Part shown: piece after piece, positions 10,852 through 24,563 of the stretch
Numbering within the stretch: the first letter of the stretch is position 1
How the letters are laid out: every line of letters begins with the position of its first letter
From: a virus
Length of the DNA stretch: 49,491 nt
Direction: 5' to 3' (one strand)
Virus record (IMG/VR): IMGVR_UViG_3300005323_000007
Program-made: the position numbers and the translations under genes
The notes under the pieces: generated by a model
Database searches by the model: none
What the model saw: only the letters and a program-made list of their open reading frames with translations
Told to the model about the DNA's origin: nothing

Positions 10852-10852
10852 A

Positions 10853-10924
10853 CTAGGGCGGCTGGATTCGAACCAGCGATAACCAGAACCAAAATCTGGC
10901 GGCTTACCACTTGCCTACACCCTA
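10853..10924 (-). tRNA. tRNA-Gln (anticodon UUG)
   Basis: Hand-folded 72-nt cloverleaf. Acceptor UAGGGUG/CGCCCUA with U1-A72 and G73; 3-bp D stem with loop AAGUGGUAA; anticodon stem CCAGA/UCUGG with loop UUUUGGU; T arm GCUGG-UUCGAAU-CCAGC. No CCA is encoded. Confidence 0.85.
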
Positions 10925-11030
10925 AAATGGCCAGAGAAACCCGACCGCCCAGTTTTGCGCGCTACCACTCAACGTCTTGCGGGCCAAACCGGCCCACAGG
11001 TTTAGCATCCTGTGCTGGCCTCCGGTTCGC
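10925..11030 (-). ncRNA. Unassigned structured 106-nt spacer between the two tRNAs
   Basis: Minus-strand hairpins CACAGG-AUGCUAAA-CCUGUG and GGGCC-GGUUU-GGCCC. There are also long-range complementarities, GGCCAG...CUGGCC and CGAACCGG...CCGGUUUG. It will not fold as a canonical cloverleaf. Confidence 0.4.
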
Positions 11031-11102
11031 TGGAGTTAATGGGATTTGAACCCATAACCTTTGGCTTGCAATGCCAACGCTCTACCATTGCGCTATAACC
11101 CC
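11031..11102 (-). tRNA. tRNA-Ala (anticodon UGC)
   Basis: Hand-folded 72-nt cloverleaf. Acceptor GGGGUUA/UAACUCC with the G3:U70 Ala identity pair and A73; anticodon stem UUGGC/GCCAA with loop AUUGCAA; T arm AUGGG-UUCAAAU-CCCAU. Confidence 0.85.
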
Positions 11103-15318: not shown

Positions 15319-15605
15319 TACTTAACTACATCCGCCATGTATATACACCATCTATCATCCATACTACACAAGTGCCCACTATGTATCTAGGCGATAATAT
15401 AGATACCACCACTACATATAGTGGCGTTGCAATATCCCGCAACGTTAGACGATACCGGACAAACATTATAACTCTATATAATATATGTAATTAAACACGA
15501 CGCGATTATATTGGATTTAAGGTACCACAATTTTCGTGCCATGCGTTTATATGGACACGTGCCCGCAAACGCAATGGCGGGCGTTTATGACGCTATCAAT
15601 ATATG

Positions 15606-16145
15606 TCAGTGTTTATCAACGTTTGCAGTACTTTGCTCTTGTATGTCATCGTCTGGCAATATCTGCACTTCCACGTCAGTCGCGGGGCCTTTTGGTATCA
15701 CCGAGGCCTGTCGCGCGCGTATGGCGTCGCGCTTTTTAAGCGCATCCTCAAGCTCTTCCCGAAGCGCCTCGTCAGTCATCCCGGCAAGATCATGATCAGG
15801 CGCTTTCATGTCGATAAAAAGTTTTGTGCCTTCCGTGGCTTTGCGCATCTCTGTGAGCATCGCCCGCGCGGTGGCGTCCGACCTGGTAATCATTTTGGTC
15901 ATCACTCGGTTGACAAGTTGACGCCCAGTGAGTTTTTGTTCCTTTTTATCGAGCGTTACCTTATGTTCCGTAATTAACCATTCTGCATAGATTTGCGACA
16001 TCGCAATTTTCTTGCGGCGCGACTCAATTGATTTTTTGGCCCCCTCGATACCTATTTTGCGTGCCTCCTCCGTGGTGAGACGCCGCAAATTGCCGCCATT
16101 TGAGAGTATAATTTTGCCGTTACCATCCTCTGCCATATTTGTCAT
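15606..16145 (-). CDS. Possible terminase small subunit / DNA-binding protein
   Basis: 179 aa. The N-terminal segment GGNLRRLTTEEARKIGIEGAKKS is common in phage small terminases and DNA-binding proteins. It is the first gene of the late arm, but a terminator separates it from terL. Confidence 0.3.
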   Translation of the reverse strand: MTNMAEDGNGKIILSNGGNLRRLTTEEARKIGIEGAKKSIESRRKKIAMSQIYAEWLITEHKVTLDKKEQKLTGRQLVNRVMTKMITRSDATARAMLTEMRKATEGTKLFIDMKAPDHDLAGMTDEALREELEDALKKRDAIRARQASVIPKGPATDVEVQILPDDDIQEQSTANVDKH

Positions 16146-16495
16146 AATGGCACTATCCGAGCCCTAAAGACAAGCCCCCAAGCGGCAAGCCTCCCTATAT
16201 GCGGTTCTGAGTATTCTGATATTTATTCATTCTATTATGTATATTTACTACATTATTATAATTCATTACATTAAAAGTAATTAAAAACATATTAAATATT
16301 ACGACTCCTTAATATAGTGAGAATATCTATACCCTATATAGACTTCTTGACTGGTGATATTTCAATAATTTCGGGTGACGAAAACGGCCAAAAAGGATAT
16401 AACCTATATTTTTTTTATTATTATTAACTTCCAAAAAATTTTCTCTGGCCATTTTTTCTCATTTTGGGAACTTTACCTTTTAATGTTTTACTATC

Positions 16496-16569
16496 TATAT
16501 ATATATTATATTTATTTATAATATAATAATATAATATAATAATATAAAAAGATATATATTTAATAAATA
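16496..16569. repeat. A/T-only low-complexity tract ((ATAAT/ATA)n)
   Basis: 74 nt with a single G, inside the 590-nt divergent intergenic region. Confidence 0.8.
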
Positions 16570-16673
16570 GTGTAGATAAAAAAAAATATGATGGGAAACG
16601 ATGTGACACTCACCCCGTGCCTGATGGGTATATGTAGTACACAAAGGTGCAAGGGGTAAATACCACAAACCTA

Positions 16674-16703
16674 TTGACGATATACGGGGAGACGTGGTAA
16701 ACT
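16674..16703 (+). promoter_or_regulatory. Sigma70-like promoter candidate for the early arm
   Basis: TTGACG, an 18-nt spacer, then TAAACT, about 35 nt upstream of ATG 16738. Confidence 0.35.
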
Positions 16704-16737
16704 GAAAAAATAGAATTGTATAAAAGGAGTATAAAGC

Positions 16738-17304
16738 ATGGCGAAAAAAATTTGTGCGTCGAAATGGGAAGCGATAACATGGGCGGGGGAATGCCCGATC
16801 GCGTGGGAAAGAATGGGAATGTTTGTGGGGATGGATGAAAATGGGAACGTCATGGCACAAATGGCATGGAAGCCCCGGCACGACACAAAAGTGTATTTAC
16901 AGCGGGCGCCTATCGCGTGGTCAAGCTCGGAAACCGTCAGACAGCGCCTGGGGCTCGATCCTCCAGGGATAGGGTCGCGGTGCCGGAAAGGCGGATCGAC
17001 AACCACCGAGCGCAAAGCCGAGGCGGCGCGTGCGAACGGTCTGAAGGGCGGTACACGCCTCTCCTGCGCGCCGGTGCCGGAAGGCGAAAAGATGAACCGA
17101 CAGGTGATCTATTTGACGACAAGCGCGTTGCAGATGCTTCGCTCACACGGTCAGGGAAAAATGTCGGCATATGTCGAAAAATTGATACGCGACGATAACA
17201 CCGCCGTAAAAAAATGGGAAAACACGCAGGCGATCATGAAAATGAAAATGCCCGCGATGAACGGCGATGCCGTCATCGTCGAGACAGGGGAGAGCGCAAC
17301 ATGA
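16738..17304 (+). CDS. Early protein with a ribbon-helix-helix-like C-terminal region
   Basis: RBS AAGGAG. RQVIYLTTSALQMLRSHGQGKMSAYVEKLI looks like an RHH. It shares the W..ETVRxRLGLD motif with the next gene. Confidence 0.5.
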   Translation: MAKKICASKWEAITWAGECPIAWERMGMFVGMDENGNVMAQMAWKPRHDTKVYLQRAPIAWSSSETVRQRLGLDPPGIGSRCRKGGSTTTERKAEAARANGLKGGTRLSCAPVPEGEKMNRQVIYLTTSALQMLRSHGQGKMSAYVEKLIRDDNTAVKKWENTQAIMKMKMPAMNGDAVIVETGESAT

Positions 17305-17639
17305 TGATGAAAAAAGAGTGGGACGAGTACCGCGCAAAAGACGAGGCGACACCGCGAAAAAAAGTCGTCAAAAACGTCGAAGAAGCGGAATGGTTCTGCA
17401 AGGGCGGAAACTGGAAAAGCACCAAGGTGGCCATATTTGTACAGAGCTATAACCACGCCTCCGCCTGTATCCGGCGTGGAGGGCAGAGCCGCGTCATCCA
17501 GGTGTCGGCTGATACGATGCGCTGGTCGCCGATGGAAACCGTGCGCGAACGCTTAGGCCTCGATCTGATCCAGGGCCTTTATCATACCGAGGAGGAGGCC
17601 CGCGCCGCTGGATGGGATGGCCCCATGACCAAGGGATAG
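17301..17639 (+). CDS. Hypothetical early protein (paralogous motif WSPMETVRERLGLD)
   Basis: ATGA overlap with the upstream stop. Start trimmed to 17301. Confidence 0.5.
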   Translation: MMMKKEWDEYRAKDEATPRKKVVKNVEEAEWFCKGGNWKSTKVAIFVQSYNHASACIRRGGQSRVIQVSADTMRWSPMETVRERLGLDLIQGLYHTEEEARAAGWDGPMTKG

Positions 17640-17694
17640 TAAACGCTTGTGTAGTAGTTATGATGATAAATCGTAAAAATAATAATTATAATCA

Positions 17695-17723
17695 TTGACA
17701 TAATGTCATAACGGGTGTATATT
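17695..17723 (+). promoter_or_regulatory. Near-consensus sigma70 promoter with a palindrome over the -35 element
   Basis: TTGACA, a 17-nt spacer, then TATATT. The -35 element is part of TTGACATAATGTCA. Confidence 0.55.
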
Positions 17724-17756
17724 GATAATAGAGAGATTGAGAGAGGAGATAAAGAG

Positions 17757-17960
17757 ATGACAGCACTAGAGCAGATACAGAGCACACTTCACCGCGATGG
17801 TATGGTGACGGTATCTACTCACCTGAGATGTACACAGTATCTAGGTGCAAAATATGAGCACTGGTTTAGCGATGATGCGCGCGGCGATCTGTATGTACAG
17901 TCTGGAGCCAAACGCGTCTGTATATCGTTTTGTCAGATTAAGTTGTATCAAAAGCGGTAG
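17757..17960 (+). CDS. Hypothetical protein
   Basis: Start trimmed to MTALEQ, preceded by GAGAGGAG. Confidence 0.45.
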   Translation: MTALEQIQSTLHRDGMVTVSTHLRCTQYLGAKYEHWFSDDARGDLYVQSGAKRVCISFCQIKLYQKR

Positions 17961-18033
17961 AGAGCGCGGGCGACGCAGGGCGCGTTAAACCGGAGGCCGA
18001 GTCCAAACCCTCGGCAGGTATGGAGGTAGAGAG

Positions 18034-18270
18034 ATGAAATTGGCGATTGGAGTAAAAACGGTCGATTTGGGTGGTGGTGAGTATTTGCATTTTTGGTATG
18101 CAAATAACGCAGGTAGGGGGTGCAGTAACTGCACAATAATCAGATCCAGAAGCCCTGCCCGTGCAATTTGTGCAAAAAAACAGGCAGATGTCATCTCACA
18201 GGTGAAAACGAGTGCATGGAAGGGCCACGTAAATTTCAGCCAGCCGACAAAAACCGCACTTGGCCTATAG
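18034..18270 (+). CDS. Hypothetical protein (uncertain; the region is also hairpin-rich)
   Basis: 78-aa ORF with GGAGG 8 nt upstream of the ATG. No recognisable motifs. Confidence 0.35.
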   Translation: MKLAIGVKTVDLGGGEYLHFWYANNAGRGCSNCTIIRSRSPARAICAKKQADVISQVKTSAWKGHVNFSQPTKTALGL

Positions 18271-18299
18271 CTAAGGCGATGGGGCCCGCGCAAGCGGGC

Positions 18300-18355
18300 T
18301 CTGGTCTGGCGCTCGATCGCGCCACTGATGAGACCCCGCGAGGGTCGAAACCAGA
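18300..18355 (+). ncRNA. Type III hammerhead ribozyme
   Basis: Reads UCUGGU-C|UGGCGC-UCGAUC-GCGCCA-CUGAUGA-GACCC-CGCGA-GGGUC-GAA-ACCAGA. The full invariant core and GUC cleavage triplet are present. Stems I, II and III are 6, 5 and 6 bp, with stem III open-ended. Confidence 0.85.
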
Positions 18356-18385
18356 AGAGAACTTCAGAAAAATGGAGGTCGTAAG

Positions 18386-18628
18386 ATGAAACGCAGATTT
18401 ATGGCATGGTGCCGTGGAAGTTGTAATAGTTTAAGAGTTACGCGCTCGGCAAGCGACGCGGTTGATGCTGGCGTTGAGGATATTGATTTTGGTATCAACC
18501 TGATGATGTCGGGCGATTCCGTCGCGGTATATCTCAACTCCGGGCGGAAAGGCGACCTGAATCATCTGCTATTGGGCGAGTATTCCCGCGCCGATCTTGT
18601 AAGGATGACGGCGGAGGCCAGAAGATGA
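18386..18628 (+). CDS. Hypothetical protein
   Basis: 80-aa ORF with GGAGG 7 nt upstream. It is the first cistron downstream of the hammerhead. Confidence 0.5.
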   Translation: MKRRFMAWCRGSCNSLRVTRSASDAVDAGVEDIDFGINLMMSGDSVAVYLNSGRKGDLNHLLLGEYSRADLVRMTAEARR

Positions 18629-18664
18629 GATTCGCTACAGCAAGCCAACAATTGGTATGCATAA

Positions 18665-18710
18665 GGCGCGAGCGGTGGTTCTTGTGGCGGTTCAACCCCG
18701 CCACGCGCCA
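18665..18710 (+). ncRNA. tRNA-like acceptor/T-arm minihelix
   Basis: GGCGCG...CGCGCC stem stacked on (G)UGGCGG-UUCAACC-CCGCCA(C), with a T-loop-like UUCAACC, then an unpaired A. Only 14 nt occupy the place of the D and anticodon arms. Confidence 0.5.
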
Positions 18711-18745
18711 GCTTCAGAAAATTTGATATTGCAAGGGAGGTTGAA

Positions 18746-18964
18746 ATGAAAAAGGCAGAACGCGACTCGTTCGCTCGGGCTCTTATGGAAAACGCAATTA
18801 AAGGCATTTGTCGGGGGCTGGAAAATGCCCCTGAAACATGGGATGGTGTAGAAATACGTCAATACTGCATGGATTATGTAAAAAACAATGTTGTTTTCTG
18901 CAAAATGCCAAAAAGTAGGAAGGCCGCATATAATAATACTATTTTAATCAATAATCTTTTATAA
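18746..18964 (+). CDS. Hypothetical protein
   Basis: 72-aa ORF with RBS GGGAGG. Confidence 0.5.
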   Translation: MKKAERDSFARALMENAIKGICRGLENAPETWDGVEIRQYCMDYVKNNVVFCKMPKSRKAAYNNTILINNLL

Positions 18965-18975
18965 GAAGGTAAATC

Positions 18976-19179
18976 ATGATTGATTCTTTGATCGCGTGTT
19001 TCAAAAAGGAAATGACGGTTGCCAAGGCGATTCGCACCACGGCAAAGGAAAAGGGCGAGTGGCCGAGCGCCCGGGATGTGCTTCAGGCGCAAAAAGCATT
19101 GAAGAAAGATGATGACGAAGAGGACGACGAGGACAGTGAAGGTCAGCGGATGATCGACCGAGAAATAGCGAGTTACTGA
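18976..19179 (+). CDS. Hypothetical protein with an acidic tract
   Basis: 67-aa ORF with RBS GAAGG. Contains a DDDEEDDEDSE tract. Confidence 0.45.
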   Translation: MIDSLIACFKKEMTVAKAIRTTAKEKGEWPSARDVLQAQKALKKDDDEEDDEDSEGQRMIDREIASY

Positions 19180-19224
19180 AATGGGGCGTTGCCTTAGTGG
19201 AATATCAGTCGTGGATGTATGACA

Positions 19225-19344
19225 ATGAAGTTGAAAGACAAGCGCACGAAAGCGCAGGCTGAGAAAGCGATCAAGAGGGCGATCCGCAAATTCGGCGACC
19301 GCGACGGTTCACTCAAGAAAAAGCTGAAGGAGGTTGAGGGATGA
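19225..19344 (+). CDS. Small basic ORF (39 aa), below the track threshold
   Basis: Hand translation gives MKLKDKRTKAQAEKAIKRAIRKFGDRDGSLKKKLKEVEG. It has an ATGA overlap with the next gene. Confidence 0.3.
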   Translation: MKLKDKRTKAQAEKAIKRAIRKFGDRDGSLKKKLKEVEG

Positions 19345-19610
19345 ATCTCAATGAGTATCTTGCAACGATTCTACAGTGGCCTGGTCTCACAAAAGAAGAG
19401 GCGGCTGAGGCTCAAGCAAAAATCAAAAGACTTTATCAGGGCCGGAATCTAAAAAACAGAAAAGTGTATTTTACCTATCCTTTTGAAGAAAATAGGCCAA
19501 ATTTATCGCGACTTTTTATTTTTGCTCAAACAAAAGAAGGACATTCATATTGGTATCATCTTTATGAGGCGGAATGCGAATTTTATAGATTAAAGGAGGT
19601 ATCTGGATGA
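19341..19610 (+). CDS. Hypothetical protein
   Basis: 89-aa ORF with RBS GGAGG. Confidence 0.5.
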   Translation: MNLNEYLATILQWPGLTKEEAAEAQAKIKRLYQGRNLKNRKVYFTYPFEENRPNLSRLFIFAQTKEGHSYWYHLYEAECEFYRLKEVSG

Positions 19611-19660
19611 AATAATCGGTCGATTCAAGATTTTGAAAGGGTCGCGCTGAGGCGCGACCC

Positions 19661-19711
19661 CGGTCGTGGCGTGATGCTCGCCGCCTGAATGAGTCCAGCA
19701 GGACGAAACCG
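19661..19711 (+). ncRNA. Hammerhead-like (type III topology) element with a 1-nt core insertion
   Basis: Reads CGGU-C|GUGGCG-UGAUGCU-CGCCGC-CUGAAUGA-GUCC-AGCA-GGAC-GAA-ACCG. The layout matches 18300..18355, but the core is CUGAAUGA rather than CUGAUGA and stem III is only 4 bp. Confidence 0.5.
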
Positions 19712-19730
19712 AAAAATGGGAGGATAAGGA

Positions 19731-19961
19731 ATGACGAATATCCCCACCTCAGTTCATTCGCTCTCGCAACCGGTGCGAAGGTACGATATTCAGGTATCGT
19801 TCTATGGTCGAAGGCCCGTCGCGGAATTCGAAGATATCAAAGCGAATTGTGCGGAGGATGCGAGAGCATGGGCACGGAAAATCTGTGAAGAATATTACTC
19901 ATACCCTATCAAAAACATTATGGCAATCGAAGTCAAAACGATAAGGAGAATGCCATGCTAG
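19731..19961 (+). CDS. Hypothetical protein
   Basis: 76-aa ORF with GGGAGG 7 nt upstream. It is the first cistron after the second hammerhead-like element. Confidence 0.5.
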   Translation: MTNIPTSVHSLSQPVRRYDIQVSFYGRRPVAEFEDIKANCAEDARAWARKICEEYYSYPIKNIMAIEVKTIRRMPC

Positions 19962-20053
19962 ACGATGATGATGACGATGATCCAGAGCCGCAGCCTGAGT
20001 TACACGACGAAACGTACTATAATATTCTGTACGGCGTTAGTAGGAGCGATTGA
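19955..20053 (+). CDS. Small acidic ORF (32 aa), below the track threshold
   Basis: Begins MLDDDDDDDPEPQPELHDETYYNILYGVSRSD. RBS AAGGAG. Its stop abuts the next ATG (tgaATG). Confidence 0.3.
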   Translation: MLDDDDDDDPEPQPELHDETYYNILYGVSRSD

Positions 20054-20242
20054 ATGCCAAGCGAACGGATAATCGAAACAAGACAGCACGGCAATGATAC
20101 GCTTGAATGCGTGGTTCCGTCCGGCGGAGATCCTGTGGGGTGTCCGAAATGCTTTTTCTTCGTGGGGCTTGATGGGTATTGCGCCCCTTCTTCTCACGCA
20201 TGTGAGAAATATTTGCGGTCATATTGGAGGTTGAAGAGATGA
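20054..20242 (+). CDS. Hypothetical Cys-rich protein
   Basis: 62-aa ORF with an ATGA overlap onto the clamp gene. Confidence 0.4.
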   Translation: MPSERIIETRQHGNDTLECVVPSGGDPVGCPKCFFFVGLDGYCAPSSHACEKYLRSYWRLKR

Positions 20243-21255
20243 TGTTATCAAAGGAGTTCCTGAAAATCGCGCATAAGATTGCGCCCAGAAAAGATGGTCT
20301 GTCGGTTTTTGAGTACATCGAAAGCGACGGAACGCAACTCAAGGTTTCCAACGGTGCAGAATTTTTAATCTGCAAGCAGCCGATGGAAGAGAAAGGTCTT
20401 TTCAATTTTAAACAGAGCGAAGTTCTGGGGAAACTGTCATCGCCATGGGGTGGTAAATTTGAAAAGGCCTATGAAAAAGAACTTCCCGAAACGCCTCACT
20501 ATGATGATTTGTCTTTCGTCGCGCTCAGTGATCGTCAGAAAAAGAAATTGCTTGAGGCTTCGGGATTCGTTTCGCAGGACGAGACGAGGTTCTTCATGAA
20601 TGGCGTTTATTTCAGTCCTGAAGATAAAATCGTCGCAACGGATGGGCGCATAATGTACGTCGCTTCAGGTTTCGAGGGCCTGTCGTCGAACGTCATCGTC
20701 AGAATGACGCCGGCGCTTCAGGTCATCCTCAGTGAAAAATGTATCGTCGAAATGGAATCAAGGACATTCGATGATGCTACATATGGGACGATATTCTTCA
20801 AATTTGAAATAGGCAATATTCAGTACGTCTACGGGAATCAGATAATCGACGGAAAATTCCCGAACTGGAAAAAGGTTATCCCTGAGACTTACGCAAAACA
20901 GACGGGACTCCCCGACAGGAACGCATGGAAAGAAATTTTCAAGAAAGCGCGTGCGCTCAAGTTGTACTCCGTGTGCTTCAGAAAAATATCTGATGAGCAT
21001 GTAGAAGTTTTTATGGAATCGGAGAATCTTGAGCCTATCGAATCTCTGGGGGTTCTTAAATGGAATTTATGGTGCGATGCCACAGGGAGAATTGAGTTGC
21101 GACTCGCCACGAAGTATTTCGACAAAATTCTTGCCATAGAGGGGATCAATGAAATGGCATATAGCGATTTCAGAAAATGTCTTCGCTTCAACGCAGATGA
21201 CGGGACGTTCGCGCTCGTGATGCCCTGCACGCCGCGTGATACAATAAGGAGATGA
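20239..21255 (+). CDS. dnaN: DNA polymerase III beta sliding clamp-like protein
   Basis: QDETRFFMNGVYF...VATDGRIMYV and DGKFPNWKKVIP match hallmark DnaN motifs. Start trimmed to the ATG at 20239, after GGAGG. Confidence 0.7.
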   Translation: MMLSKEFLKIAHKIAPRKDGLSVFEYIESDGTQLKVSNGAEFLICKQPMEEKGLFNFKQSEVLGKLSSPWGGKFEKAYEKELPETPHYDDLSFVALSDRQKKKLLEASGFVSQDETRFFMNGVYFSPEDKIVATDGRIMYVASGFEGLSSNVIVRMTPALQVILSEKCIVEMESRTFDDATYGTIFFKFEIGNIQYVYGNQIIDGKFPNWKKVIPETYAKQTGLPDRNAWKEIFKKARALKLYSVCFRKISDEHVEVFMESENLEPIESLGVLKWNLWCDATGRIELRLATKYFDKILAIEGINEMAYSDFRKCLRFNADDGTFALVMPCTPRDTIRR

Positions 21256-21258
21256 ACC

Positions 21259-21591
21259 ATGCCAAAACGTTTTATCACTGCTGAAATAATGGCGCAGGAG
21301 CGCGGGCTAGATGTTTCGCTCGTCTCGATGATATGGCAACACCTCGGAATTGCGCCGACCGTTTCCGAACGACAAGCGATGCCTGTCCTTGATGAACTCA
21401 TGCGCAGGGGTATGATACACCACAAAGACCCTTCCATAGATCGATTTAAGAAATACGGCACAAGAGTCAGTATGTCGTTCTCGCTGCCCCTCGATGTCGT
21501 GATGTTCCTCAAGGAGCAGGATGGTTCGGCCTCGGCATATGTGACGGGGCTGATCGTGGAGCAGATGCAGAAGGAGGCAGGAAATGTGTGA
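21259..21591 (+). CDS. Hypothetical protein with an RHH-like C-terminus
   Basis: 110-aa ORF. The C-terminal segment RVSMSFSLPLDVVMFLKEQDGSASAYVTGLIVEQM resembles an RHH. Confidence 0.45.
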   Translation: MPKRFITAEIMAQERGLDVSLVSMIWQHLGIAPTVSERQAMPVLDELMRRGMIHHKDPSIDRFKKYGTRVSMSFSLPLDVVMFLKEQDGSASAYVTGLIVEQMQKEAGNV

Positions 21592-21949
21592 GGAAGATGT
21601 AGGGTTGGTGAAGCAGGCGATCGAGCATTATGACAGGATGATTGCATGGGCAAAAAAGCGACGAAACGAAGAGGATATCCGTTATTCCATGGGAAAATGG
21701 ATAATGTATTCTGATATTGGCGAAAACTGGCGCGGCAATTATTGTCCGCTATGCCAAAAATATGGAGACAAGGATTGCATTGGATGCCCCATCTTTGAGA
21801 AAACCGAATTTACAAATTGCGACAATACACCATGGCAAAAATTAAACTACGCTCTGTTGTGGAGCACATGGCTCAAATATGCCAAGCAGGAGCGCAAATT
21901 TCTGCAATCTTTGTTGAAGGAAGGCAGAGATGCGCCGTCAACTCCGTGA
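21584..21949 (+). CDS. Hypothetical Cys-rich protein
   Basis: 121-aa ORF with RBS GGAGG. Contains a CPLC...CIGC pattern. Confidence 0.45.
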   Translation: MCEEDVGLVKQAIEHYDRMIAWAKKRRNEEDIRYSMGKWIMYSDIGENWRGNYCPLCQKYGDKDCIGCPIFEKTEFTNCDNTPWQKLNYALLWSTWLKYAKQERKFLQSLLKEGRDAPSTP

Positions 21950-22031
21950 ATTTCTATGGGGAACCATTGCGGGTGCCGTCTTCGTTATTCCCGTCATCAT
22001 CGTACTTATCGTCCAGGGAGCGTTCAAATGA
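21930..22031 (+). CDS. Small membrane ORF (33 aa), below the track threshold
   Basis: Reads MRRQLREFLWGTIAGAVFVIPVIIVLIVQGAFK, with one TM segment. RBS GGAAGG, and an ATGA overlap with the next ORF. Confidence 0.35.
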   Translation: MRRQLREFLWGTIAGAVFVIPVIIVLIVQGAFK

Positions 22032-22225
22032 GTCTCAGGCTTGTGGTGCTCATCGTAGTTTATATTCCCTTGTGGCTTCACGTCGTGCCGAATGGTGGAT
22101 ATTTCCACCTTAGCACGAATGCGATTGCAGGAGAAATGTGGATCGAATATGGCAATGAGCGCATAAGCATAAATAGGGAAATCGATATTCCAGCTCACGG
22201 GATGATAACCGTAGGATGTAATTAA
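22028..22225 (+). CDS. Small membrane protein
   Basis: Trimmed to MSLRLVVLIVVYIPLWL, a TM segment. Confidence 0.4.
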   Translation: MSLRLVVLIVVYIPLWLHVVPNGGYFHLSTNAIAGEMWIEYGNERISINREIDIPAHGMITVGCN

Positions 22226-22237
22226 AGGAGGCCCATT

Positions 22238-22675
22238 ATGGAGAAAGGCGATTTTTCCGATGTAAGGAGACACAGAGAATCATTCGTTCACCCGACCGCC
22301 GTTTTTTACGATACCATCACTAATGGAAACGAAATTACGCTTCAGGAAATCGAGCGTCGCGCCGGTGGTAAGATCAACAGAAACGAACTTACCGCACAAA
22401 TGGCGCTCAGGGGCTTTGAACGAAAGTATCAAACAAATCCTCCGCGCTATGTCCGGCGTTCATGGTCTACTATCGAACCGTACCGGCAAGCTCAAGGCTG
22501 TACGATCGACGACCTCAAAAACGCGCTTGAGTTCCATAATCTGAAACTTGACATATCGTGGAAGAATATTATTTCAGCGCTGGGTTTCCATGCCCGTCGA
22601 GAAGACGTGAATCGTCATATGAAGGCGCTTGGATATAGTTTTGATCGGAAGCGCGCGCGATGGAATAAAATCTAA
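22238..22675 (+). CDS. Hypothetical protein
   Basis: 145-aa ORF with RBS AAGGAGG. Confidence 0.5.
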   Translation: MEKGDFSDVRRHRESFVHPTAVFYDTITNGNEITLQEIERRAGGKINRNELTAQMALRGFERKYQTNPPRYVRRSWSTIEPYRQAQGCTIDDLKNALEFHNLKLDISWKNIISALGFHARREDVNRHMKALGYSFDRKRARWNKI

Positions 22676-22683
22676 AAATACTA

Positions 22684-22711
22684 TTGACATTTTGTCAAAG
22701 AGGTATACAAT
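22684..22711 (+). promoter_or_regulatory. Sigma70-like promoter with a palindrome over the -35 element
   Basis: TTGACA, a 16-nt spacer, then TACAAT. The -35 element is part of TTGACATTTTGTCAA. Confidence 0.5.
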
Positions 22712-22733
22712 GAACGCACAAAGGAGCTGAATT

Positions 22734-23357
22734 ATGAAGGAACACCCTATATTATTTAGTGGTGAAATGGTACAGGCAATTCCCGAAGGCTACAAGACCA
22801 TGACACGGCGAGTGATTAAGCCACAACCAGATTTTCCCGTTTTTGTTAAAAAAGCAGTTTGTTCATATGATGATGAATCGTCATATTATTGTTGGTGGTT
22901 GCTTGATTCTTTGGATTTGACTATTGATGATTGTTCTTTTTTGCGGTGCCCTTATGGAGTGCCAGGAGACCATTTATGGGCAAAAGAAACATGGGGAATA
23001 GGTACACAACTCGCCGGAGGAATTGTTTATAGAGCAAGTGGTGGGCGTTTAGCAGATGGGGAACATTGGCATCCATCAATTTTTATGCCACGGGAATTAT
23101 CACGCATCACCCTTGAGATTACCAATATCAGGGCGGAAAGGTTACAAGATATAACCGAGGAAGATGCGATGAAAGAGGGGATGGCGCGAGAATTACGCGC
23201 AGCTCTTGGATATTCTCCAGAGGTATCAGAAGAAACTTTCAATTTAACACAAGCCAGAGATACCTTCAGAATTTTATGGGATAAACTCAATTCAAAGCGC
23301 GGCCATGGCTGGAAGAAAAACGATTGGGTATGGGTTATTGAGTTTAAGAAAATATAA
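22734..23357 (+). CDS. ASCH/PUA-like domain phage protein
   Basis: The N-terminal segment HPILFSGEMVQAIPEGYKTMTRRVIKPQP is a common phage ASCH-like signature. Confidence 0.45.
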   Translation: MKEHPILFSGEMVQAIPEGYKTMTRRVIKPQPDFPVFVKKAVCSYDDESSYYCWWLLDSLDLTIDDCSFLRCPYGVPGDHLWAKETWGIGTQLAGGIVYRASGGRLADGEHWHPSIFMPRELSRITLEITNIRAERLQDITEEDAMKEGMARELRAALGYSPEVSEETFNLTQARDTFRILWDKLNSKRGHGWKKNDWVWVIEFKKI

Positions 23358-23375
23358 TTTTCAAAGGAGCTGAAC

Positions 23376-24563
23376 ATGGGTAAAATATTTGGAGACCCGA
23401 AGGTTATTGAGATTGTCGAGAAGATGCCAGCAGGTTCCCCCGCGAACCTTGTTTGTTTGGATGCAATCAAGGATTTGCCGGAAACATTGTCGGGATATAT
23501 TATCCCCGTACCGTATACGGTAAACGATTTCGAGGAAGTTGGCGGCGGAAACTATATGCCTTCTCCTGACCTTGTGAATCGTATTTGCGAGGCACGGGGG
23601 ATATTCGGATGTGATGGCGGAACGGTAGAACCTTTCTATCTTGAGATAGACTGGAATCGTCTTGCCTGTAAATTCGACGAACCGCCCAAGATGGTACGGA
23701 TGCACGTCGGGTATATTGCCAAGAAGCGCGGTCAGGTCATGATGGAAGATGGCGTCATGCGCACGAGCGATGAATGTGTCGTGCTCTACAATGCATGGGA
23801 ACGCCTCTGCGCGGATCGTTGGGGGCCAGAAGAGGCAGGGACAAATTTCTATGACCCGAAAATCGTAAAAACTGACCCGAATGGTTCCCGATATTACGAA
23901 TATTCTTATTACGACAAGAACACGAAGAAAACAGTATCTAGTAAAAAATATCTGAAATATGATACCCGCAGCAAACGTCAACTTAGCTTCGATGAAGAAT
24001 TGAAATTCGCGCAACGCAAGGCGGACACCAAGGCCAGGAACGTCGTTATTCGAGTCATCACGGGGATGAATACAGGCTACACAAAAGAAGACCTGAAAGC
24101 TGGATGCTTCTATTTTCATCGTATTCAGCGTTCGGAATGGTCAATCAAGGCAGAACAGGCGGCATACCTCAAGAGAATCACTGATCCGCAACATGTGGCA
24201 CTCCCTTCTGCCTCCTCAGAAGTTTTCGACTCGCCGCATCCCATTATCGCAGAACCTGTGAATGACACACCCCAGGAATCCCCACCCGAATCTCAGCCAG
24301 AAACTGAATCGGAAGCTGAACCCACACCTCAGAAAACCCACCAGCAGATGCTTATAGACGTTTTGACGACATATAAGGAGCAGAATCTTGTACCAGAAGC
24401 GCGGGTAAAGGGCGTCGATAGTCTGCTTGGATGGCTCGATAAGACGAAAGAGGCCGAGAAGTCTGCATATTGGTCGAAGGCGCTGACGCTTCTGTCGGTG
24501 GTCGAACAGAGTTTGCCTGAAGACAAGAGAATCGAGCATGAAGGGCTGGAGGTAGGGAAATGA
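23376..24563 (+). CDS. Hypothetical protein, possibly a recombination partner (single-strand annealing protein?) of the downstream nuclease
   Basis: 395 aa with an acidic Pro/Glu-rich C-terminal region, translationally coupled (ATGA) to the Mre11-Rad50 fusion. No firm motif. Confidence 0.25.
   Translation: MGKIFGDPKVIEIVEKMPAGSPANLVCLDAIKDLPETLSGYIIPVPYTVNDFEEVGGGNYMPSPDLVNRICEARGIFGCDGGTVEPFYLEIDWNRLACKFDEPPKMVRMHVGYIAKKRGQVMMEDGVMRTSDECVVLYNAWERLCADRWGPEEAGTNFYDPKIVKTDPNGSRYYEYSYYDKNTKKTVSSKKYLKYDTRSKRQLSFDEELKFAQRKADTKARNVVIRVITGMNTGYTKEDLKAGCFYFHRIQRSEWSIKAEQAAYLKRITDPQHVALPSASSEVFDSPHPIIAEPVNDTPQESPPESQPETESEAEPTPQKTHQQMLIDVLTTYKEQNLVPEARVKGVDSLLGWLDKTKEAEKSAYWSKALTLLSVVEQSLPEDKRIEHEGLEVGK

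Follow-up and report, generated by a model that had tools for sequence, protein, structure and literature searches.

Introduction

Does a hammerhead ribozyme with an extra nucleotide in its catalytic core still serve the phage that encodes it? The question is raised by an element, here designated HH2, in IMG/VR virus record IMGVR_UViG_3300005323_000007, a stretch of 49,491 nucleotides (nt) that we refer to as the window. HH2 and a canonical type III hammerhead, HH1, are both intergenic and on the coding strand, 1.36 kb apart, amid small open reading frames (ORFs) without known function. The original prediction for this locus, made from the sequence alone, read HH2 as a type III hammerhead with one extra core nucleotide and left three possibilities: an active ribozyme, a slow one or a decayed copy.

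Hundreds of hammerheads are known in bacteria and phages (Perreault et al., 2011; PMC3088659). In prophages, multiple hammerheads flank genes, and processing of long phage transcripts has been proposed (PMC3088659). The role of prokaryotic hammerheads was still called open in a 2017 review (PMC6155905). A natural insertion after core residue A6, termed 'A6a', has been described in one hammerhead and was treated as a rare, detrimental variation (PMC3088659). The ribozyme class, its phage context and the A6a insertion itself are already published. Added here, from the comparison of sequences, is that the A6a core is widespread, specific and evolutionarily maintained.

By its sequence and predicted fold, HH2 is a true A6a hammerhead of type III. 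We favor, at a probability of about 0.65, the reading that HH2 self-cleaves between C19665 and G19666, possibly more slowly than HH1, in the intercistronic processing of an early phage transcript. HH2 belongs to a known class of ribozymes, in which it is uncommon yet ordinary, and it is probably not a broken copy.

Results

A type III hammerhead fold with an eight-nucleotide core strand

The DNA of HH2 reads CGGT-C / GTGGCG-TGATGCT-CGCCGC - CTGAATGA - GTCC-AGCA-GGAC - GAA - ACCG, with the slash at the predicted cleavage site (Table 1). In keeping with the type III topology, loops cap stems I and II, and stem III has an open end. The essential core bases are complete and in order (C19685, U, G and A19688; G19691 and A19692; G19705, A and A19707), and the cleavage triplet is GUC, with C19665 at H17. 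The closing pairs are A19708-U19664 (A15.1-U16.1) and G19693-C19704 (G10.1-C11.1). HH2 departs from the consensus CUGANGA, which has a single N7, in that two nucleotides, A19689 and U19690, lie between A6 and G8. The unconstrained minimum free energy (MFE) fold of 19630-19745 consists of exactly the upstream hairpin and the three-way junction (z = -2.4). The Rfam Hammerhead_3 model aligns with 19658-19714 over its full length, with one insert after CUGA (28.4 bits, local E = 3.6e-4). The alignment and the MFE junction both agree with the predicted type III hammerhead, and the alignment places its single extra core nucleotide, A19689, between A6 and U7. The hairpin, HH2, the Shine-Dalgarno (SD) sequence, the spacer and the ATG are all present in the sequence where the original prediction had put them, and the first cassette, with its own hairpin, HH1, 7-nt spacer and ATG, is likewise as it was described. 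Taking GGUC at 19640-19643 for the cleavage triplet would give another register, which is implausible because its 'stem I' would be closed by 3 base pairs (bp) only.

The score of HH2 lies below the Rfam gathering score of 48.5 (RF00008, clan CL00010), as would be expected of a chance resemblance, or of an intrinsic terminator hairpin next to unrelated sequence. HH1 itself scores 37.9 bits with Hammerhead_3, and in 13 other loci (including L001, L015, L021, L022 and L178) the type III hammerheads, canonical and A6a alike, all stay below 48.5. The gathering threshold is uninformative here because HH1 and the type III hammerheads of these 13 loci also fall below it. In Rfam scans of the whole window, at gathering and at E-value thresholds, the filters drop the hammerheads and the tRNAs alone are returned. 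Routine annotation would miss the type III hammerheads examined here, since they score below the gathering score and are dropped by the filters in multi-kilobase scans. A type III descriptor that we built and ran on both strands of the window matched HH2 and HH1 and no other site, while 200 shuffles gave 0.015 canonical and 0 insertion-type matches per window. No match to a descriptor with a relaxed core was found in 1.5 Mb of reversed and complemented decoys of the loci fetched in this study. When 21 A6a hammerheads from outside the window were used to build a covariance model, it gave HH2 53.3 bits (E about 1e-13) and HH1 24.5 bits; the 53.3 bits are partly circular and inflated because the pattern used for retrieval fixed HH2's own core and stem II. 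The upstream hairpin (19639-19660) abuts the 5' side of stem III and is followed by CGGUCGUGG, with no U-tract, and no terminator was called there on the + strand. We rejected a Rho-independent terminator because the U-tract is absent. Chance resemblance or a terminator has a negligible probability and is effectively refuted by the comparative data below. The HH2 feature is real, far beyond chance.

The two loops of HH2 may also interact. UGCU in loop 1 (19675..19678) is fully Watson-Crick complementary to AGCA in loop 2 (19697..19700), a match whose chance probability is 0.015 if the loops are random and 0.057 if HH2's own loops are shuffled. Stem I exceeds stem II by 2 bp, a geometry tied to pseudoknots in type III hammerheads (PMC3088659, Figure S4 note), and pseudoknots between stems I and II are frequent in hammerheads (PMC3088659). 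We regard the two loops as a candidate 4-bp pseudoknot.

The A6a core in other phages

Public collections were scanned with the pattern CTGANNGAGTCCNNNNGGACGAAAC, in which both positions between A6 and G8 were left free and stem II was fixed. Matches were found in 8 viral contigs, 44 metagenome contigs and 1 metagenome-assembled genome. Twenty-six distinct matches parse as clean type III hammerheads, with a GUC triplet in 26/26; matches without type III stems (L007, L020, L030, L033, L037, L042, L053, L181, L184 and L185) were set aside as chance or other topologies. The two free positions are AU in 22 and AC in 4 of the 26. The inserted base is always A, because every type III parse had one of these two dinucleotides with both positions free. 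The base after the inserted A is U more often than C, the same preference as that of N7 in canonical cores. HH2 has all the features of this subclass: an A after A6, a pyrimidine at N7, the GUC triplet and the type III topology.

The stems of these hammerheads covary. In 21 distinct A6a sequences, stems I and III are 99.4% paired. Across these stems 55 cells are changed on both sides, compared to 13.4 +/- 3.4 in shuffles, and pairing drops to ~36% when the partners are slid by 1-3 columns. The covariation in this set concerns stems I and III, stem II having been fixed by the pattern. Further A6a copies, found as second or third hammerheads of the same contigs or with a pattern free in stem II, have stems II of GUCU/AGAC, GUUC/GAAC, GGCC, GACC and GCGC, and other peripheries. 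Up to 3 A6a copies occur per contig (two or three in L015, L021 and L178), and A6a and canonical hammerheads occur together in the window, L001, L019, L041, L055 and L182.

Over 1.54 Mb of fetched loci, the relaxed-core descriptor found 63 canonical and 32 distinct A6a hammerheads. In addition, 9 hammerheads had a base added after A9, 5 had a U10.1-U11.1 mismatch and 2 had an extra U before C3. Since the A6a insertion is documented in nature and recurs in 32 sequences, we treat it as a variant within the hammerhead family and not as grounds for exclusion from it. The A6a core is a minority form: it occurs in 8 viral stretches, whereas canonical cores joined to the same stem II occur in at least 120. 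The non-consensus cores were located in L015, L018, L022, L047, L048, L144 and L186; in L091, L093, L095 and L110; and in L124 and L170. In the hammerheads extended after A9, the extra base is U or A and lies between A9 and stem II. The marine loci L015 and L022 each hold several A6a copies and one copy of this A9-insertion form.

The two cores also replace each other at one site. L035 and L166 are orthologous loci with the same flanks and 89% identity over 490 nt, and their type III hammerheads carry CUGAAUGA and CUGAUGA, respectively. The two hammerheads differ only by the A6a indel plus a compensatory change in stem I. About 480 nt past the type III hammerhead, both loci contain a conserved type I hammerhead (CUCUAA-CUGAUGA-stem II-GAA-stem III hairpin-GUC-UUAGAG), whose stem II shows compensatory changes (GCCC/GGGC and GUUC/GAAC). 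Hammerheads of differing topology alternate within one operon in these two loci.

The sequence of the published A6a example was not recovered: the supplementary text of PMC3088659 contains no CUGAAUGA, no CUGAACGA and no complement of either. A literature search for the string CUGAAUGA found no paper, and for 'A6a' together with hammerhead PMC3088659 alone was relevant. A study of deep-sea viromes (PMC13481778) does not cover core insertions.

A hairpin, a hammerhead and a start codon

Reading the sequence of the two cassettes reveals a common order of hairpin, ribozyme, SD sequence and ATG, and the original prediction had argued that this order is a functional module. The comparison with other phages bears this out. 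G+C-containing hairpins of at least 8 bp that end no more than 12 nt before stem III were found at 8/23 A6a and 20/39 canonical type III hammerheads, compared to 20/1420 control positions. An ATG-initiated ORF starts no more than 80 nt downstream of 22/24 A6a and 32/39 canonical type III hammerheads and of 36% of the controls; the median distance from hammerhead to ORF start is ~25 nt. The hairpin-hammerhead-start codon layout is general, and strongly enriched, among phage type III hammerheads. We found no description of a coupled upstream hairpin and a start codon ~25 nt downstream, quantified here, in the hammerhead literature searched. The enriched hairpins have no U-tracts. After cleavage they would lie 5-10 nt from a 3' end with a 2',3'-cyclic phosphate; for the hairpin upstream of HH2 the distance to the new 3' end would be 5 nt.

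Unmasking of the SD sequence by cleavage was considered and rejected, as the probability of GGGAGG being unpaired is equally low before and after cleavage. It is low because in both states the predicted partner of GGGAGG is CCCCACC, which lies within the downstream ORF (19752-19760). A gene common to the A6a hammerheads was also sought downstream of them and was not found, the genes there being diverse. In one marine group (L015, L022, L023 and L052), the gene directly 3' of the A6a hammerhead encodes an ArdC-like anti-restriction protein (PF08401 and the zincin domain PF18818). In other lineages the downstream genes encode unrelated small proteins.

The locus in related phages

Comparison with related contigs reveals how HH2 may have arrived. 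In blastn alignments of L009 and L011 with the window, homology covers 19213-19339 and resumes at 19719. Relative to these contigs the window has an insertion of ~380 bp (19340-19718), which consists of the ORF of 89 amino acids (aa), the hairpin, HH2 and a new SD sequence. In L009 and L011 (2870-3514 and 506-1181, respectively), the 76-aa gene is translationally coupled to the preceding small ORF. At the same junction, L010 (1642-2247) has a different gene of 72 aa, followed by a sequence that by eye can form a hairpin and by an SD sequence, with no ribozyme. Homologues of the 76-aa and 89-aa ORFs were found in the same phage lineage only.

The original prediction had taken the shared layout of the two cassettes as a sign of duplication, and the comparison does not support this. 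HH2 and HH1 cassettes have little in common beyond the universal core and an A-rich SD leader, which led us to reject HH2 as a recent duplicate of HH1; compared to L009 and L011, HH2 came with the inserted 89-aa gene. The HH1 cassette has a history of its own. From the hairpin to the ATG (window 18283-18388), it recurs in L010 (1059-1159) as a 106-nt island of 88.7% identity, and the flanking genes have no detectable protein similarity on either side. The changes from the window to L010 are mainly in loops, where the hairpin loop GCAA becomes UUCG and the stem II loop CGCGA becomes CGUGA.

A ribozyme of another fold is found one junction further upstream in the same operon. In L010, a Twister-P5 ribozyme (772-827, + strand), with 52.4 bits against a gathering score of 37.6, is located at the junction upstream of the gene preceding HH1; AAGGAG and an ATG follow it. 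The window has a weak Twister-P5-like match at 17956-18013 on the + strand (22.9 bits, against 37.6), before the ORF at 18034-18270 and followed by AUGGAGG and an ATG. Both contain GCGUUAAACCG and GUCCAAA. In the window match, AAACC takes the place of the consensus AAGCC, and the 3' half of this match is missing from L009 and L010. Judged by their predicted folds, self-cleaving RNAs of different kinds mark cassette junctions in this phage group. Their position at mosaic module boundaries suggests that the ribozyme cassettes might act as recombination linkers.

The HH1 cassette as an island of homology between unrelated genes, the position of HH2 at the boundary of an insertion, and the equivalent junction in L010, with only a hairpin recognized by eye and an SD sequence, would also suit an element that folds without catalysis. 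Such an element could be a structured intergenic RNA (a 5' stabilizer or a barrier to RNases) or a recombination linker between cassettes at the level of DNA. This explanation leaves unexplained why every catalytic base and C17 are strictly retained throughout the class, and why equivalent junctions hold self-cleaving RNAs of unrelated fold (type I and type III hammerheads, and twister). A linker role could accompany cleavage, not replace it. We consider fold or linker function in place of cleavage to be quite improbable.

The window is the whole or most of the genome of a tailed phage. It codes for a large terminase, a tape-measure protein, a minor tail protein and a J-like tail protein, as well as a VapE-like primase/helicase, an SbcC-like protein and two tRNAs. 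A 49.5-kb ENA contig is 100% identical to the window over the compared region 15341-23610. A nucleotide search of window 17500-21500 against INPHARED phages gave no match, and a protein-based search of viral contigs for the locus with the 343-aa neighbor gene returned nothing. The promoter-like site upstream of both hammerheads (Table 1) is a candidate start of a polycistronic transcript that HH1 and HH2 would process; from this site to ~22.6 kb, no convincing terminator was found on the + strand. The phage-encoded tRNA-Gln(UUG) (10852-10925) and tRNA-Ala(UGC) (11031-11102), both on the - strand, lie between the structural module and the terminase.

Table 1. Features of the two hammerhead cassettes and their surroundings in the window
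Feature	Position	Strand	Remarks
Promoter-like site TTGACA-17-TATATT	17695..17723	+	11/12 consensus matches; consensus scan only; upstream of both hammerheads
Hairpin of first cassette, GCAA loop	18284-18299	+	
HH1, canonical type III hammerhead	18300-18355	+	Predicted cleavage after C18306
SD sequence GGAGG of first cassette, 7-nt spacer, ATG	18374-18378 (SD); 18386 (ATG)	+	
89-aa ORF upstream of HH2	19341..19610	+	Function unknown; no Pfam or PHROG match
Upstream hairpin, 9 bp, G+C-rich, UGAG loop: GGGTCGCGC-TGAG-GCGCGACCC	19639..19660	+	Sequence and MFE fold
HH2, type III hammerhead with 8-nt core strand	19661..19711	+	Sequence, Rfam alignment, MFE fold, descriptor
HH2 stem III, 4 bp	19661-19664 / 19708-19711	+	
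HH2 C17	19665	+	Predicted cleavage between 19665 and 19666
HH2 stem I, 6 bp	19666-19671 / 19679-19684	+	7-nt loop UGAUGCU, 19672-19678
HH2 core strand CUGAAUGA	19685..19692	+	C3 U4 G5 A6, extra A (A6a, 19689), U7 G8 A9
HH2 stem II, 4 bp	19693-19696 / 19701-19704	+	Loop AGCA, 19697-19700
HH2 G12-A13-A14	19705-19707	+	
A-rich leader AAAAAT, SD sequence GGGAGG (19718-19723), 7-nt spacer, ATG (19731)	19712..19733	+	Sequence
76-aa ORF downstream of HH2	19731-19961	+	Gene called in public assemblies

Discussion

Several points in addition to the low Rfam score weigh against cleavage by HH2 in the processing of the transcript. The A6a hammerhead described previously had detectable but low activity, which was attributed to a disturbed contact of the A6-N7 phosphate to U4 (PMC3088659, section 8, Figure 5). 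Stem III of HH2 has 4 bp only, and in longer contexts the MFE fold favors an alternative pairing over the true stem III, in which the upstream UCGGU (19606-19610) pairs with ACCGA and the CGG of stem III pairs with CUG of the core. A copy of UCGGUCG at 19606-19612 is able to pair with the 3' strand of stem III (ACCGA). The periphery of HH2 (6-bp stem I, UGAUGCU loop, AGCA loop 2) is unlike that of the main A6a group, which has a 7-bp stem I with a GUGU loop and a stem II of GUCC-RAAA-GGAC. The conservation seen at the level of the class therefore transfers to HH2 in part only; other atypical members are L178, L179, L182 and L183. Copies of the HH2 locus were found elsewhere in L040 and L177 only, both 100% identical, so that there is no variation at the exact locus. 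The 76-aa gene is present in three related contigs without HH2, and HH2 is therefore dispensable for the expression of that gene. Finally, predicted accessibility of the SD sequence is unchanged by cleavage, and folding gives no support to an 'insulator' effect on translation.

Some of these points are what a decayed or crippled descendant of a canonical hammerhead would show, in which A6 was duplicated by a recent or neutral insertion and useful catalysis was lost. The low activity in the sole published test (PMC3088659, section 8), the short stem III and the close relatives that manage without HH2 all fit such a copy. Purifying selection on HH2 is unproven, as all known copies are identical, and slippage can easily duplicate an A in CUGAUGA. 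Against decay, the insertion is kept in 32 distinct hammerheads with compensatory changes in their stems, and the inserted base is always A, no other having been seen with both positions free. Several phages (L015, L021 and L178) carry two or three A6a copies. In HH2 itself the remaining core bases, the GUC triplet and the possible 4-bp pseudoknot between the loops are intact. We consider a decayed copy unlikely. Of the three possibilities left by the original prediction, decay is disfavored by the 32 covarying A6a hammerheads and by the interchange of cores at an orthologous locus, and a slow ribozyme is still plausible because the sole published A6a test gave low activity (PMC3088659). The extra A probably lowers the rate of cleavage relative to the canonical HH1 and is yet compatible with function.

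Comparison with known hammerheads provided insights into what is ordinary in HH2 and what is not. Like other type III hammerheads of phages and prophages (PMC3088659, PMC6155905), HH2 has a three-helix junction, a conserved core and a GUC site, and it lies between small phage genes of unknown function in an operon with several ribozymes. Unlike them, its C3-A9 strand has 8 nt, not 7. It has the same natural one-nucleotide insertion directly after A6 as the published A6a example (PMC3088659). That example was regarded as rare and detrimental, whereas here the insertion marks a subclass that recurs and covaries and in which the inserted base is fixed.

A second kind of core insertion is also relevant. 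The (+) hammerhead of chrysanthemum chlorotic mottle viroid (CChMVd), reportedly described by De la Pena and Flores in 2001, is said to have an extra nucleotide between A9 and G10.1. It shares with HH2 a single-nucleotide insertion in the same core strand, and the insertion in CChMVd is compatible with natural function. The nine phage hammerheads with an extra base after A9 in the fetched loci have such a CChMVd-like insertion (CUGAUGA followed by U or A). In CChMVd the insertion lies between G8-A9 and stem II, whereas that of HH2 is between A6 and N7. The backbone next to stem II can bulge out more readily than that between A6 and N7.

RiboJ, an engineered insulator derived from the sTRSV hammerhead, is placed between the promoter or upstream sequence and the ribosome-binding site, and its 3' hairpin exposes the ribosome-binding site. 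HH2 may work in a similar manner, as a type III hammerhead just 5' of a ribosome-binding site that would strip off the upstream RNA and leave a structured leader with a 5'-OH. The extra hairpin of RiboJ is on the 3' side; that of HH2 is on the 5' side, with no predicted change in SD accessibility upon cleavage.

We propose that HH2 is transcribed within a polycistronic early transcript of the tailed phage. Stems I-III would form and allow internal transesterification between C19665 and G19666, which may be helped by the pseudoknot between loops 1 and 2. The upstream mRNA, with the 89-aa gene, would then end in a 2',3'-cyclic phosphate 5 nt past the 9-bp hairpin, which would be expected to shield it from 3' exonucleases. 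The downstream mRNA, with the 76-aa gene, would begin with a 5'-OH and the folded ribozyme, followed by the short A-rich leader, GGGAGG and the ATG. Since predicted SD accessibility does not change upon cleavage, we assign the likely benefit to the chemistry of the mRNA ends, to stability and to uncoupling from the upstream cistron. The net effect would be that neighboring, freely shuffled gene cassettes give rise to separately stable and separately translated mRNAs.

A further proposal joins the core and the layout. A6a hammerheads could be a distinct, positively maintained functional subclass in which the A tunes the rate, and the gene, hairpin, ribozyme and SD sequence could together form a portable cassette. 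We regard this as tentative, possible but doubtful. If true, the extra A would make cleavage slower or dependent on a condition or factor, and would determine, at given junctions, how much of the mRNA is processed and how much is not. For this purpose, one operon would combine A6a hammerheads with twisters and fast-cleaving canonical hammerheads. The unit of gene, 3' hairpin, ribozyme and SD sequence would be a means of swapping small accessory genes, with the DNA of the ribozyme doubling as a recombination linker.

The biological role of the hundreds of hammerheads in phages and bacteria has been regarded as open (PMC6155905), and the HH2 locus makes the question more testable without answering it. 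A single operon offers a canonical and a core-insertion hammerhead, together with natural relatives that lack one or have a twister instead, and the flanking architecture yields specific predictions on mRNA ends and stability. An insertion previously deemed rare and detrimental is a recurrent, covarying state that can replace the canonical core at an orthologous site. Its recurrence, specificity and interchangeability, together with the quantified layout, are useful new handles on the function of these ribozymes in phages.

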